Below, one piece after another: positions 8,211 through 21,971 of a stretch of DNA of 51,712 nt. The stretch's first letter is position 1, and every line of letters starts with the position of its first letter. The stretch covers positions 1 to 51,712 of IMG/VR virus record IMGVR_UViG_3300012944_000010, one strand, 5' to 3'. Source of the DNA: a virus (Duplodnaviria; Caudoviricetes). Position numbers and translations under genes: made by a program. A model generated the notes under the pieces. It ran no database searches. It worked only from the letters and a program-made list of their open reading frames with translations, and was not told the DNA's origin.

Positions 8211-9562
8211 TACAACGAATCGAGGGAAAGACGATCGACGACAAGTACCTCGAACTTGTTGCTACTGAATATGGCGAATACATCGTCTATATTGATGTGA
8301 ATGCCGAGGGGATAAACGCCATTCACATGGACGGCGGCGAAGAACAGTCTCTGCAGAATATCAAAGATACAATGGCAGAAACTACTGCGCCATTCTTCTT
8401 GGCATTCGGCAAAGGTTGCGCCGAAGAAGACCGATTACCATTCTTAATCATGCAGTTGGACAACACAACTCCACTGTGTGCGATCCTGATCGAAGGTAAC
8501 TTCGCTGGCTTCGGCGAGATGGAGTCATCCCATCCGGATGAGTGGTATGTCAGCCAACAATACCTACTACCCAAGATCACTCGCTTAGCCAAGGACTACG
8601 ACGAAAACCAGGCTAAGATCGTTGAGTACCTGAGCGACTCGTTCAATCAGAACGAAATGCTGAAAAGCATCTGTCCTCTCCCAGGCGCTCGATGTGAAAT
8701 ACTGTTCATTTTCGGCAATGGACAGACTGTGAACATGGTTAAAGGTGATCTTCATAAACGATTTGACTGGGGGGAAGTTTCCAGCGCATTATCTTACAAC
8801 CCTGCCGGTCAGTCTACTGTTCTAAAGAAGATCACAGGGAGTTTGGCAAGGGGCACACGAACAGCTCCAATCATTACAGCCAAGCCCAACGAACCTGATG
8901 GCAAGAAACCAGATACAGCAATAGCGGCTGCCATCATAAAGGCTGATGCGAAGAGCGACGATGATCGTCCTTACATCTTGCCACCAGGCAGACGTTGTGA
9001 GTCAGCCAAAAACCTGGGCGAATTCTACGATCACAATTGTGGTTATCGTCCAGAAGGTTGGGAAGATGGCATCAGCGGAAAGGCTTTGAGCAACGCTAAA
9101 GCCAAGCCTGCCAGGGTGAAAAAAGCCCTGTGGGAAGACACAGTAAGATACGCTAATGCTGTGTCTAAGGGTACGTTCTTGGAAGTGAAGGACGACAAGG
9201 GCGGCAAAGCACCGTCCAAGGTCGATCCTCCGGCACAACCTAACCGCATGGTGCTGTTGGCTACGGAGCGTGAAGCCGTCGAGAAGGTGTTCAAGCCGAA
9301 GCTGATCAAGGCCACCATCGATGACGGCAGCAATCTCGTTGCTGACCCAGTGCAGTTGGCTGAGGATTTGAAAAACAATCCTCTGTTCACGCAGATGGTC
9401 GGCTTCAAAGAGGGGTTGGATGAGTTCGAGAAATACTCGTCCGAGGCGTTCTTGCTACTATGCAAAACAGAACCGAAGGCCGCGGCGTTGCTGTTATCGC
9501 AGTACCGCTTGGACCGCTGGGTTAATAAGAAATCCGGCGCTGTGGCCAAGGTTGCTATCTGA
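8189..9562 (+). CDS. Hypothetical protein; N-terminal half weakly resembles a degenerate class II glutamine amidotransferase fold
   Basis: Long ORF; GAGGA SD before ATG 8189; no N-terminal catalytic Cys; next to a GGCT-like gene. Confidence 0.6.
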   Translation: MGHEAAIVQRIEGKTIDDKYLELVATEYGEYIVYIDVNAEGINAIHMDGGEEQSLQNIKDTMAETTAPFFLAFGKGCAEEDRLPFLIMQLDNTTPLCAILIEGNFAGFGEMESSHPDEWYVSQQYLLPKITRLAKDYDENQAKIVEYLSDSFNQNEMLKSICPLPGARCEILFIFGNGQTVNMVKGDLHKRFDWGEVSSALSYNPAGQSTVLKKITGSLARGTRTAPIITAKPNEPDGKKPDTAIAAAIIKADAKSDDDRPYILPPGRRCESAKNLGEFYDHNCGYRPEGWEDGISGKALSNAKAKPARVKKALWEDTVRYANAVSKGTFLEVKDDKGGKAPSKVDPPAQPNRMVLLATEREAVEKVFKPKLIKATIDDGSNLVADPVQLAEDLKNNPLFTQMVGFKEGLDEFEKYSSEAFLLLCKTEPKAAALLLSQYRLDRWVNKKSGAVAKVAI

Positions 9563-9686: not shown

Positions 9687-10376
9687 ATGAAGAACTTGCT
9701 TTCAAATATCAGGGAGCAGTATAGCGTCTACAAAGCAAAAAGAATGCTCAATAAATTGAGCGTTAACTACAAACTGCCAGGGAGTGATGTGTATCACACA
9801 CCTGATGCTCCTGAAGTGGAAGCAAGAGAGTTTCATCTTGTCTTAATTTATGATGAGATGATGTTACATAGACCTGAGCATAGCAAGATCGAATACTATG
9901 TACAGGAACACGCAGGTAGAGGAACAACACGAGCTAATGTGGAAGCATGGATACATGAGCCGACTAATAAAGTCTTGGCTTTTCCTGCATTTCACAAACA
10001 AATCAAACCTGTGTGGATGGATCAGAATGGAGCTAATCCAGCTCCCATCAAAGGCGATCTGTTCAAAATTCGTTCAGATGCTCTTTTTATTCTTGACAAA
10101 CTGATGGAGAATACGGTATGGTATAACCGCTTTGAAGTGAATACAGTCTCCTGGTTAAGGAAGAACTATTACTCTCACTTACATAGCCGAACCCATACCA
10201 CACAAGAGAACCCTCAATATCGTAAGGCTTGGATTTATCTCGCTAATCCTCAGAAAGCGAATTTGATTTCAAGTTACGATGGTTGGCGTCCTTTACCTAT
10301 GTGGCCTCCTCGTAAACGCGAAAAGGGGAGTTGTGTATATTTTCATTCATATAGAGGTGAATCATCAGCCGCCTAA
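9687..10376 (+). CDS. Divergent gamma-glutamylcyclotransferase (AIG2/GGCT)-like protein
   Basis: LVLIYDEMM...IKGDLFKI...LFILDKLME...Y.R..V...AWIY follows the GGCT motif order. Confidence 0.6.
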   Translation: MKNLLSNIREQYSVYKAKRMLNKLSVNYKLPGSDVYHTPDAPEVEAREFHLVLIYDEMMLHRPEHSKIEYYVQEHAGRGTTRANVEAWIHEPTNKVLAFPAFHKQIKPVWMDQNGANPAPIKGDLFKIRSDALFILDKLMENTVWYNRFEVNTVSWLRKNYYSHLHSRTHTTQENPQYRKAWIYLANPQKANLISSYDGWRPLPMWPPRKREKGSCVYFHSYRGESSAA

Positions 10377-18843: not shown

Positions 18844-19341
18844 ATGCCTAGAGAACAAGAAGTAGTTTACCTTAGTGGTAAGATTGCGTGGGGCAGAGGA
18901 CTCTTTGTCCCTTCGCAATTCAATAAATATTCATGTAGATTATATTTAGATCAAGAGTCTTTAAACATTGTACTAGATTTGAAGAAGAGAGGAATACAGA
19001 ATAACGTAACCAAAGATGAAAATGGATATTGGGTTAATCTGTCCCGTCCTTCTCAAATCAATGTACGTGGTGCTCTACGCACAATGGACCCACCTATTGT
19101 TATCGCTTCCGATGGACAACCTTGGGATAAGAACAAGGGAATTGGGGACGATAGTGATGTTACTTGTCAGGTAATCGTCCGTAATTGGAAAGCACCTATG
19201 GGCGGAAAGACAGGTGTTTCTATTAGGTTAGACTCTGTTAGAATTGATAACTTAGTTGAATTTACTAGTACAGATTGGCCTGAAGCAGTCGGTAAGAATG
19301 TTAAGGCTCTAGAAGAACATAAAGTAACTCCTTGGAATTAG
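18844..19341 (+). CDS. Single-stranded DNA-binding protein (T7 gp2.5-like)
   Basis: YLSGKIAW, KYSCRLY, PPIVIASDGQPW...IGDDSDV, RLDSVRIDNLVEF; position after polA. Confidence 0.75.
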   Translation: MPREQEVVYLSGKIAWGRGLFVPSQFNKYSCRLYLDQESLNIVLDLKKRGIQNNVTKDENGYWVNLSRPSQINVRGALRTMDPPIVIASDGQPWDKNKGIGDDSDVTCQVIVRNWKAPMGGKTGVSIRLDSVRIDNLVEFTSTDWPEAVGKNVKALEEHKVTPWN

Positions 19342-20720
19342 CCAGCCTAGTCCACTGATACAGACAGCCTACCCTACTCCCGTAGTGACTCCTGTATATC
19401 AGATGGTTGGCTCTTTTATTAGCAGCTCTGCTGCGCATGTTGCGGAGCAACATTTAATAGGGTGTTGCAGGTACGGTAACGTATTCTGTTCTGAGAGATG
19501 GTTTCGCCGTAAGGCTCTCACTCTAGGTTGCAGGCGAAGTAACAATCTAGCACCCTTTTATTAGCGTAGCTCAACAGCAAGAGCCCCACCTGTATGTGCT
19601 GGCGTGATCCAGTGGGAAACCGTGGGAGATGTAGGTTAAAGTCCTATCGCTATTTGTCCCTTTGTACAAATCTTTGTGCAGTAGTATAAAAGCGCAGGTA
19701 TAGACGGGTTAGAACTAGTAAACGGGTACTACAGGCCCGTGGGTTAGGTTCTCCAGGCCTAACTGTTCCGTCTCGATTACGCACGACGGCTGTCCGAACG
19801 TCGTTACCAGCCCTACGGGGCCAGAAATCCGGTGTTGCGCTCCGGCTGTGACTACACAGCTCCCAATAGGTGAGTTGTAAGGTGATGTGTACAGAGGGAC
19901 AAACTAAGGCTAGATCCTTACGCTGTAACCCCTCCATAAGGTGCAGCATGTGTCGGTAAGTAGGCCATTACTTGCAACCAGCCACATATGTGATCCTCTG
20001 CCCTCGGTGAACCGTCTTAACGGATCACTTAAGATGCTAAAAGACAATGTTAGCTAGTACCGGAAGGTATTCTAGCAGGTTGTGCAGGCAGATCATGGGA
20101 CGTTAAAAAACTCGATATGTTCCGTCTCTGTGGAAGCTAACGTATGTGGAAGTAGTTCCGTAAAGGTCCGCAATTCCTGGATTGTCTGTCCAGGATACGA
20201 CGATAGTCCTCGTGTATGATAAACTACAATCTCCACTCCCTCACTCATTCTTGCCGTGTAGGCATTGCTTTCAAACGCACAGAGCTGTAGAGTAGTAGGA
20301 GATTGAGGCGTCGTGTCAGATAGTGCCGCCGCTTCTCAAAGGTAGACACCAGAGAGATAGGGGAGCTACTGACACTGATTGACGATCAGTCCATAGGCGG
20401 GCAAGTAACGAGTCGTAGGACACAAAGCCCATGCTTTCAAGCTAAAGGGTGATTATAGGAATGAAAAGACTATGAGGCAGTCTAACGCCCTCTGAAGGCA
20501 GTCACTGTACCATCTGGGAAACTTTGTGGATAAACTCATAGTAGCGAATGCTCTGTTAGTTTGCTAACAGAGATACTATTCCCACTGCTTGCATAGTCGA
20601 GGTGGTGCTACAGGCCGTCAACAGATATGCAGCAGCAACCGCAGGAGGTGACAATGTTTCCTATGTGGTATGGGAATAAGCCTCCTTAAGTATTACCGGG
20701 GGGCTAGGTTGTCGTTGCTA
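19340..20720 (+). ncRNA. Large multi-domain structured non-coding RNA region (unclassified)
   Basis: No credible long ORF; about 15 abutting helical domains with G-U pairs and GNRA loops on the + strand. Confidence 0.7.
19560..19654 (+). ncRNA. tRNA-like element with a ~32-nt anticodon loop
   Basis: TAGCG/CGCTA acceptor, GCTC/GAGC D arm, CCCAC/GTGGG stem, GTAGG-TTAAAGT-CCTAT T arm. Confidence 0.6.
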
Positions 20721-20801
20721 TTATAATGAATTCATTTCTTAACAAATTTAGCACCTCTGGTGCGCGCGGCGTAGCCGCTTAACAACAATGGAGATTAAAT
20801 C

Positions 20802-21095
20802 ATGGGTAGCGGCATCTTAGACATGCTTCTACTACAGAGCTTACTCAAACCATCAGGAGGCACTGAGTCATTAGATCAGGCACTTAAATGGATTGAGGAA
20901 TTCAGGAAGACAGAGAAGGAGAAATCTGATAAAGCTAAAGCTAAAGGACCACAACCAGCACCTAAGATATTCTCATTCCCTGATGTTTGTTTCATATTAT
21001 TAGGACTGGGACTACCAGCTGGTTTATTATGGATGTGGGGTGTCTTAGAACTAATTGATATTGTGCAACACAGAGCAGCAGGTATATTTCACTAA
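20802..21095 (+). CDS. Membrane protein with C-terminal TM helix
   Basis: GGAG SD; FILLGLGLPAGLLWMWGVL. Confidence 0.7.
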   Translation: MGSGILDMLLLQSLLKPSGGTESLDQALKWIEEFRKTEKEKSDKAKAKGPQPAPKIFSFPDVCFILLGLGLPAGLLWMWGVLELIDIVQHRAAGIFH

Positions 21096-21098
21096 TTT

Positions 21099-21971
21099 AT
21101 GACTACTTCTATTCACACATTGATAACTGATGTTCGTGATCTACTCAAAACTAAAGGGTGGCTCACAGAGGTATTGGCGAAGGAACTGGGCGATGCAACA
21201 TCAAGATCTATTGGAGAACAGTTCTCCGAAAAACAAAAGGCTCCTTCGCTCCGCCTTTCAGGAATGGGACCGAGATGCCCTAAGGCATTATGGCATAGTA
21301 TACACACGCCGGGAGAGGCTGAACCTCTTCCACATTGGGCTGAAGCAAAATTCTCTTTGGGTCATTTCCAAGAGGCTTATGGCATAACACTTGCCAAGGC
21401 TGCTGGGCATAAAGTTGAAGGAGAGCAACATGAGTGCCACCTTGACGGCGTCAAAGGTCATGTGGATGCTATTGTTGACGGTTGTGTGGTTGATTTCAAG
21501 TCCTGTAGCGGCCGCCAATATCAGAAGTATAAATCCGGGGATATTGGGTTGGAGGGTAATGATTCGTTTGGGTTTCTTTGCCAGCTGGACGGGTACGTTA
21601 CTGCTTGTGGGCAGGATGATCTTGTTCATGTAAAAGACAAAGGCTATATTTTTGCAATGCATAAGGAACTAGGACATGTCTGCCTCTACGAGCACAGAAC
21701 TAGACCGGCTAGCATTCGAGAGCGCATTACTCAATACCGTAGCGTGGTTGAGCGAAAGCATCCGCCTGAGTGCACCTGTAAAACCGTACAACATGGAGCA
21801 AGTGGAAATATTGGTCTTGATACACGAGCTAGCTATGAAGCTTACAAATGGTGTTGTTTCCCCAAACTTCGTTGTTTCATCTACGCCAACGGACCCGCCT
21901 ATCTAACACGTGTAGTGAGGTTGCCAGATGTCCCAGAAGTCGGAAGAGATGGAAAGCTCATGCACACTTAA
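21099..21971 (+). CDS. PD-(D/E)xK exonuclease (Cas4/ExoVIII-like)
   Basis: LRLSGMG..CPKALW, GHFQE, KGHVDAIVDGCVVDFKS, QLDGY. Confidence 0.85.
   Translation: MTTSIHTLITDVRDLLKTKGWLTEVLAKELGDATSRSIGEQFSEKQKAPSLRLSGMGPRCPKALWHSIHTPGEAEPLPHWAEAKFSLGHFQEAYGITLAKAAGHKVEGEQHECHLDGVKGHVDAIVDGCVVDFKSCSGRQYQKYKSGDIGLEGNDSFGFLCQLDGYVTACGQDDLVHVKDKGYIFAMHKELGHVCLYEHRTRPASIRERITQYRSVVERKHPPECTCKTVQHGASGNIGLDTRASYEAYKWCCFPKLRCFIYANGPAYLTRVVRLPDVPEVGRDGKLMHT

Follow-up and report, generated by a model that had tools for sequence, protein, structure and literature searches.

A folded 250-base element at the 5′ edge of a conserved non-coding region in a T7-like podophage genome

To our knowledge, few large structured RNAs are known in bacteria and phages beyond ribosomal RNA, RNase P and introns. 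Two of them, GOLLD and ROOL, were reportedly shown in recent work to build RNA-only cages. According to a preprint, GOLLD is a large, elaborately folded phage and prophage RNA that often lies near tRNAs, has a 3′ region that is conserved and a 5′ region that is less so and is of unknown function, and ROOL is a large ornate RNA carried by phages near tRNA islands, also of unknown function (bioRxiv 10.1101/2024.12.08.627333). Here we describe a folded element of 250 bases in a soil phage of the Caudoviricetes, IMG/VR record IMGVR_UViG_3300012944_000010, whose complete 51,712-base sequence is the window analyzed (positions are those of the window unless another sequence is named). The folded element is real. 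It appears to be the first domain of a ~1.1-kb structured non-coding RNA (19653-~20745, + strand), which matches no described Rfam family.

The locus resembles GOLLD in having a conserved 3′ part (860 nucleotides, nt), a variable 5′ domain and, directly upstream, a tRNA-like element, all within a complete phage genome. It differs from GOLLD in host range and habitat, and the GOLLD covariance model (RF02032) has 0 matches at expectation values (E) up to 10 in the whole phage. With ROOL it shares the setting of a large phage-borne RNA near a tRNA-type element, but the ROOL model (RF03087) has no match either; the dedicated ROOL search was weak, its controls also being silent, and the permissive scan of 19000-21200 described below carries the weight of that negative. 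On balance, we lean towards a phage RNA comparable in kind to GOLLD and ROOL, stable and structural, with the element as its self-contained 5′ domain. By analogy, the novelty would lie in a further large ornate phage RNA adjoining a tRNA-type element, a kind already known from these two systems.

The initial annotation, made from the letters of this DNA, proposed a multibranch domain closed by a 16-bp helix between TTTGTCCCTTTGTACA (19653-19668) and TGTACAGAGGGACAAA (19888-19903). This helix, which we call P1, is contiguous as proposed, with 15 Watson-Crick pairs and one G-U pair at 19662/19894, and the minimum-free-energy (MFE) fold extends it past a one-base gap by 3 more pairs (19670-72 with 19884-86). 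Among the long-range inverted repeats of the window P1 ranks first (20 nt, 90% complementary, 211 nt apart). It is retained in the MFE and centroid structures of 1242-nt and 1460-nt contexts, and in the 1460-nt ensemble the outermost pair has a probability of 0.66 and the other 15 pairs 0.92-1.0. The 251-nt domain folds at −99.0 kcal/mol, with 0 of 200 dinucleotide shuffles folding as well and a z-score (−4.46) that is flattered because the boundaries were picked at the helix. The reverse strand reaches −88.2 kcal/mol (z −3.71), leaving the + strand better by 10.8 kcal/mol, and 13 of the 84 pairs in the MFE fold are G-U. The G-U content and the strand asymmetry together favor a + strand RNA, co-directional with the flanking genes.

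Inside P1, the MFE fold contains most of the inner helices that had been listed along with it (AGACGG/CCGTCT, ACGGG/CCCGT, GTTAGG/CCTAAC, ACGACG/CGTCGT, GCCC-TACG-GGGC and CCGG/CCGG). The exception is GCTGTG-ACTA-CACAGC, which exists in the sequence (19845-50/19855-60) but is absent from the MFE and centroid structures, where CAG/CUG and ACAGCUC/GAGUUGU are used. The fold consists of a hairpin (H1), a three-way junction built on helices P2 and P3, and a variable 3′ half (Table 1). Within the 3′ half, hairpin 19783-19804 carries the 10-nt loop GCUGUCCGAA and hairpin 19810-19821 a C(UACG)G tetraloop. Separately, the loop CUCCA (19751-19755) of junction hairpin 19742-19764 is complementary to UGGAG (20786-20790) in the ribosome-binding site of the downstream gene p97 some 1 kb away; this complementarity may be due to chance.

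Table 1. Features of the element and its surroundings (window positions unless a relative, L005 to L077, is named; ORF, open reading frame; aa, amino acids; SD, Shine-Dalgarno sequence; X1 and X2, sequencing runs).
Feature	Position	Strand	Details and basis
5′ domain, multibranch, closed by P1	19653..19903	+	folds; L005 counterpart 9164-9402; X1 contigs
Hairpin H1 (UUUGUGC-AGUA-GUAUAAA)	19673..19690	+	MFE; 5 basal pairs kept in L005
Three-way junction	19692..19782	+	P2 19697-99/19776-78; P3 19702-08/19767-73; hairpins 19722-40 and 19742-64; MFE
Variable 3′ half	19783..19883	+	hairpins 19783-19804, 19810-19821, 19822-19848 and 19851-19883; MFE
Conserved 3′ body	19904..20745	+	further domains shut by long-range helices; nhmmer to L005; partial X1/X2 contig cover
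SD and mini-ORF	20643..20700; SD AGGAGGT 20643-49; 11 codons 20654-20689	+	MFPMWYGNKPP-stop; same arrangement in L005
tRNA-like element	19560..19657	+	acceptor, D and T arms; no encoded CCA; Rfam, ARAGORN, covariation
Carriers of the tRNA-like element	window 19560-19657; L058 12797-12892; L032 15709-15826; L054 10077-10196; L062, L050, L077, L069
p165 (165 aa)	18844..19341	+	conserved upstream gene; tblastn finds homologs in 67/79 loci
Long imperfect hairpin	19343..19412	+	directly after p165 stop; fold of 19342-19559, z only −1.67
p97 (97 aa)	20802-21095	+	downstream ORF
Cas4-domain exonuclease	21099-21971	+	PHROG 1990, E 6.7e-15

A search with the DNA polymerase gave 79 loci from ~50-kb phages (polymerases 40-67% identical); searches for the locus with a single protein, the exonuclease or p165, gave none. 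Only one of the 79, an IMG/VR relative (L005) with a polymerase 60% identical to that of the window, is alike in DNA across the region by blastn and nhmmer, apart from matches to the tRNA-like element. nhmmer aligns 19883-20745, the 3′ part of the region, with L005 9390-10235 (~860 nt, E 3.6e-37). In this alignment identical blocks of 18-30 bases stand between diverged stretches, and the indels are not multiples of three. A 10-bp long-range helix (19982-19991/20140-20149) is kept in L005 through one A-U to U-A swap. RNAalifold counted 44 covarying pairs, and because it is biased towards such pairs when given two sequences, we rely on this helix and not on the count.

Further members of the 3′ body were sought in several collections. 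Five rounds of iterated nhmmer over the loci added nothing, and exact-word scans of IMG/VR with two conserved blocks found only the contig of L005. A degenerate pattern of the blocks found 7 loci in metagenome contigs: L083 and L084, which belong to one contig of the window's own phage, 2 of L005 type and 3 chance matches. The L083/L084 contig has 4451 bases and carries the window's region twice in inverted orientation at 97% identity with many single-base indels; it has the look of a foldback artefact from long-read sequencing of the same phage, not of a relative. Neither these scans nor those of species genomes with conserved words revealed another lineage.

The 5′ domain has diverged further than the 3′ body. 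In L005 the non-coding sequence that separates a gene end (9163) from the conserved ACTAAGG measures ~237 nt, and its counterpart in the window 251 nt. Neither sequence search nor MAFFT aligned the two 5′ domains, so the helices were compared by coordinates. Ten positions of P1 can be compared, of which 5 hold the same pair, 1 has a one-sided change, 3 have double changes and 1 is unpaired in L005 (C.A); the window's P1 is the longer, with matching extra bases on both strands. H1 is the same at 4 of 5 positions with a one-sided change at the other, and P2 is the same at all 3. P3 (AGACGGG/UCCGUCU in the window, AGACUCA/UGAGUCU in L005) is the same at 4 of 7 positions, with 1 one-sided change and 2 double changes. 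A descriptor of P3 and its flanks matches only the window and L005 in 1.07 Mb. P1, H1, P2 and P3 are thus retained in one diverged homolog, with five double changes in P1 and P3 between the two sequences. Loss of covariation in homologs had been named beforehand as an outcome that would speak against the closing helix; the one full homolog keeps P1 through its three double changes.

Among sequencing runs, no RNA run carries the sequence, which is evidence neither for nor against its expression, and two DNA runs (X1 and X2) carry it at small shares. Pair-preserving changes were also found in a soil sequencing run (X1), seen through tables of contig differences against the window, not as full sequence. 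In the first X1 record, which spans 19652-19766, just one of 115 nt differs: A19762G, by which U-A becomes U-G and stays paired. The likeness of this record to the window is lost exactly upstream of 19652. The second record spans 19732-19853 and 19895-20001. Here C19782T turns G-C into G-U with the pair kept and two other changes sit in an internal loop, so that both stem substitutions in the well-aligned part of X1 preserve pairing. The 3′ half is altered much more, with hairpins exchanged or removed as whole units: hairpin 19783-19804 is heavily changed, the GCCC-UACG-GGGC hairpin is missing (12 letters), and 84 other letters stand in place of 19854-19894. In the rebuilt variant a new stem takes the place of ACGACG/CGUCGU around a near-unchanged 10-nt loop, a replacement of a stem with retention of its loop that we treat as suggestive only. 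In P1, the outer 9 pairs show no change. A freshwater run (X2) spans only 20070-20168, with a 39-letter insertion.

The sequence upstream of P1 is a tRNA-like element in the window, a gene end in L005 and unlike letters in X1, whereas all three continue without a break on the 3′ side. This makes the 5′ strand of P1 the 5′ boundary of the conserved unit. Within the domain the conserved core is the 5′ half (P1, H1, P2, P3 and the two junction hairpins), and the hairpins of the 3′ half are exchangeable, as in a structured RNA whose peripheral elements vary.

The initial annotation had the domain begin where a tRNA-like element ends, and this agrees with ARAGORN and Rfam, which place the element at 19560-19655, and with a purpose-built model, which places it at 19561-19657. 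The match to the tRNA family (RF00005) scores 34.1 bits against a gathering score of 29, and the element has a cloverleaf. The anticodon arm carries ~29 extra nt (CCCAC ... CGTGAT-loop hairpin ... GGAAAC ... GTGGG), and this expansion, an internal loop plus that hairpin, is conserved in relatives. A normal seven-base anticodon loop with a readable anticodon is not present in the element, for which ARAGORN gives 'tRNA-???' and an anticodon of four bases. In 4 sequences there is covariation in the acceptor and T stems, and a model made from these 4 finds the element in 8 of 80 sources (Table 1), plus 2 weaker tRNA-type matches. Of the 8 carrier phages, L058 and L032 have it elsewhere and the other 6 a short distance downstream of the p165 gene. 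L005 and the X1 relative have no tRNA-like element upstream of P1, and no closing helix of comparable length follows the element in the 7 other loci. The element is a separable module that adjoins P1 in the window, and it might mimic a tRNA, act as a decoy or signal processing.

In tRNA-punctuated processing, tRNA-like elements define the ends of neighboring RNAs, as in mitochondrial transcripts and MALAT1-mascRNA. The cloverleaf-like element of the window abuts the first pairs of P1, and on this model cleavage at the element's 3′ end would generate the 5′ terminus of the domain. The arrangement differs in that the element lies upstream, not downstream, of the RNA, and in that L005 and X1 lack it at this place.

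The region is not coding. Within the 1460-nt stretch 19342-20801 no + strand ORF exceeds 59 aa, the two longest having 59 and 45 aa. A reverse-strand ORF of 99 aa crosses the domain; it has neither a Pfam nor a PHROG family, and the reverse ORF that L005 has in this position does not resemble it. Rfam 15 at the gathering score, run over the whole window, has no match at the domain. A permissive scan of 19000-21200 (E up to 10) returned 5 matches, of which only the tRNA model is real and the rest are at chance level; no small self-cleaving ribozyme family is among them. In agreement with what had been noticed from the letters, RNase P, tmRNA and introns have no match in these two scans or in the ARAGORN tmRNA search. 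The suggestion that the 250 nt form a self-contained ribozyme-like unit does not hold: the element is instead the 5′ domain of a conserved ~1.1-kb region, with no catalytic motif and no match to a self-cleaving family. A further candidate, RF01998 (group-II-D1D4-1), was rejected after its model failed to match the phage. A full-text literature search found no paper describing this RNA. A 2023 survey of IMG/VR predicts 8,495 candidate RNAs (PMC10690425), and hairpins or other parts of the locus may already be among these candidates.

The 3′ end of the RNA runs directly into a short ORF with a strong SD that ends in Pro-Pro-stop (Table 1), and whose end, CCTCCTTAA, is able to pair with that SD. 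The L005 counterpart lies at 10140-10175 (module 10129-10190). A pattern search for the mini-ORF returned L005 plus one chance match, L090. We collected a family set of 63 intervals between the p165 homolog and the exonuclease, and the motif CC[TA]CCTTAA occurs in 33 of them. Almost all sites of this motif (32/34) close an ORF that has a start codon and an SD-like sequence; these ORFs have 10-32 codons and always end Pro-Pro-stop. The mini-ORF lies 350-640 nt upstream of the exonuclease gene, always downstream of an ORF-poor stretch, and is followed by a GC-rich hairpin. It looks like a stalling-type leader peptide. Leader-peptide attenuators that stall at a stop codon, such as TnaC, share with the window a short ORF with a strong SD, a Pro-Pro-stop end and a following GC-rich hairpin upstream of the next genes. 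They differ in that the window's mini-ORF stands at the 3′ end of the region, not in the 250-nt domain, and it has no sequence likeness to known arrest peptides.

Across the 63 intervals, + strand ORFs of at least 60 aa cover a median of 0.34, and the coverage is at most 0.50 in 55 of them. The ORF-poor stretch of the relatives (L002-L077) spans 1.5-4.2 kb (for example L076 9542-11646 and L071 9935-12917) and is probably an undescribed large RNA. Besides CC[TA]CCTTAA, the intervals are enriched in T-arm-type hairpins (GGTTCGA[GC]TCC) that ARAGORN does not call and in hairpins with conserved loops. The loops GTCTCATTAGC and GGAGGCTAAAA sit in covarying stems, and the word CGGTG[AG]CAGACG..GATCAG[TC]C has a covarying A/G to U/C pair. 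For the GTCTCATTAGC hairpin we used 21 sequences, after dropping 2 duplicates from 23 matches. Its three loop-adjacent pairs are formed in 20, 20 and 21 of the 21, with 4-5 pair types, and the covariation score is 0.80, against 0.19 in shuffles (0/500 reach the observed value) and at most 0.21 when slid. Among 13 relatives no Rfam family matched at the gathering score in the 9 scanned in that way, and the 4 scanned permissively gave chance-level matches only.

The motifs GTCTCATTAGC, GGAGGCTAAAA and GGTGACAGACG of the relatives are absent from the window and L005 when up to 3 mismatches are allowed and a flanking stem is required, and iterated nhmmer started from L076 gave no link between the relatives' RNA and that of the window and L005. 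Since this pair lacks the other family motifs, the large-RNA locus that they share with the family is occupied in them by a divergent or different RNA. Relatives keep the end of the mini-ORF but have completely different RNA bodies upstream of it, which points to two separable units.

We propose that the RNA would be transcribed rightward together with the replication-module genes, and that in the window RNase P/Z-type cuts near 19655 would free it from the tRNA-like element and set its 5′ end. P1 would clamp both ends of the 5′ domain, whose conserved 5′ half and exchangeable peripheral hairpins would fold apart from the next domains, each of these likewise shut by a long-range helix. Produced during infection, the whole would act as a structural RNA that is stable and largely independent of protein, much like GOLLD and ROOL. 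A bolder form of this proposal, which we offer tentatively, is that the window and L005 carry a new class of ~1.1-kb ornate phage RNA made of serial clamped domains, led in the window's phage by a non-decoding tRNA mimic and ended by a Pro-Pro-stop module. Such an RNA might act on the host translation or tRNA machinery or form RNA-only particles like GOLLD and ROOL, and would be one version of a fast-evolving large-RNA locus found throughout a family of ~50-kb soil podophages, where it lies between the SSB-like gene and the exonuclease. An action on the translation and tRNA machinery is suggested by the T-arm hairpins, the conserved loops that are SD-like or anti-SD-like, and the tRNA mimic.

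Several observations weigh against a structural RNA of this kind. Of 200 first-order Markov sequences with a length of 1460 nt, 6 contain a run of at least 16 Watson-Crick or G-U pairs with a span of 100-400. With at most one G-U pair the expectation, estimated by hand arithmetic, is ~1e-3 per region and ~0.03 per window. Sliding 200-nt windows over the region give a mean z of only −0.94, a measure that is uninformative across the ORF-free stretches of 13 loci (means −1.95 to +0.34). The L005 counterpart folds no better than shuffles (z +0.38), its P1 has a probability of about zero when 1.16 kb is folded, and the 3′ halves of the two domains carry different hairpins in their MFE folds. In X1 the inner 7 pairs of P1 fall in replaced, unread letters, and the rebuilt stem of hairpin 19783-19804 is 6 bp or a different 5 bp depending on how the deletion coordinates are read. 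The comparative support comes from two sequenced lineages and the difference tables of one run, too few for a statistical covariation test. The GOLLD and ROOL models are without a match, as noted above. Finally, no terminator- or promoter-like site delimits the RNA on the + strand between it and p97, so it may never exist as a separate molecule.

That last observation also suits the main rival, a cis-acting leader in which a very long 5′ leader or intercistronic region, with the mini-ORF and its hairpin, sets the expression of p97 and the exonuclease by translation-coupled attenuation or antitermination. The passage of the RNA directly into the mini-ORF, which ends 112 nt before p97, and the recurrence across the family of the same order of ORF-poor stretch, Pro-Pro-stop mini-ORF and GC-rich hairpin also point this way. 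We nevertheless consider it unlikely that the 5′ domain belongs to such a leader, for it lies 750 nt away from the mini-ORF, the relatives keep the mini-ORF end with completely different RNA bodies, and the leaders known to us are far shorter than 1 kb. It is less likely still that the region has no function as RNA but consists of sequence in decay or acting at the DNA level (a replication origin, a region bound by protein, or remains of a tRNA island), the helix being fortuitous or acting in single-stranded DNA. The place within the replication module, the tRNA-type T-arm hairpins at the locus in relatives, the modest helix-length statistic and the weak L005 fold would all be accommodated by this explanation. 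Against it stand the G-U content and strand asymmetry, the compensatory changes in P1 and P3, the near-identity of the 5′ half in X1 despite a different flank, and the strong covariation of a hairpin in the relatives' RNA at the same locus.

A catalytic RNA, in which the domain by itself or the entire RNA is a degenerate intron or a ribozyme that cleaves or splices itself, would explain the size, the multibranch architecture and the long-range closing helices, and a homing-type endonuclease I gene and other nucleases lie nearby. We find this improbable given that group I and II introns (RF01998 among them), RNase P and small self-cleaving ribozymes gave no match in the scans above, and there are no exons to join because the flanks are two separate genes in all relatives. 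Least probable of all, and in our view very much so, is that the 251 bp are a miniature inverted-repeat element with 16-bp terminal repeats, or a recombination cassette, whose RNA fold is a by-product. The arms are indeed complementary as DNA at 15 of 16 positions, CTA stands on both sides as a target duplication would (19650-52 and 19904-06), and the X1 likeness to the window ends exactly at 19652. No second copy was found, however: blastn gave no match in phages (region) or plasmids (domain), exact 22-23-mers of the P1 arm or the domain interior are absent from the genomes of 185,579 species, an exact interior word is absent from IMG/VR, and the phage itself has no further copy (a third match has 3 mismatches, and 3/100 shuffles reach 3 matches). 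The breakpoint is on the 5′ side only, the 3′ side being continuous with the conserved RNA in L005 and X1; L005 has the same helix in shorter form together with the common inner stems; and the interior is multibranched with a C(UACG)G tetraloop.

If the structural-RNA reading is right, a further unrelated large RNA in a lytic-type podophage widens the small set of phage-borne large RNAs. It is set in a replication module, is headed by a tRNA mimic and ends in a conserved mini-ORF of the stalling type. With a short genome, a defined locus and natural hairpin-swap variants, it would be a tractable case for asking what large RNAs do, and the pattern across the 63 relatives suggests a phenomenon general to the phage family, not a curiosity of one genome.

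The window is bounded by direct terminal repeats and is a complete phage genome, and its gene content, by library matches, is that of a T7-like podophage of ~51.7 kb. Genes for a primase-helicase, a UDG-like protein, an AAA ATPase and a family A DNA polymerase lie on the + strand up to ~24 kb, and the − strand encodes the terminase, a portal-type adaptor and a 1661-aa internal virion protein. The RNA unit is placed between a gene for a protein like single-stranded DNA-binding proteins and a small ORF followed by the Cas4-like exonuclease, downstream of which comes the endonuclease I gene. The upstream protein, p165, has no Pfam family and is faintly like the T7 gp2.5-type single-stranded DNA-binding protein (PHROG 112, E 0.041). 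The hairpin that follows p165 has an equivalent in L005 and may be an RNase III-type processing site or a transcript-end structure, the RNase III role being suggested by analogy with T7-like phages. Rfam at the gathering score finds 2 true tRNAs in the window, both away from the locus. No repeated promoter-like words were found in 1-25000. Near the left end, another ORF-poor stretch of ~1.7 kb (1055-2801, G+C 0.32-0.33) carries AT-rich inverted repeats and may be a promoter, an origin or an early region.

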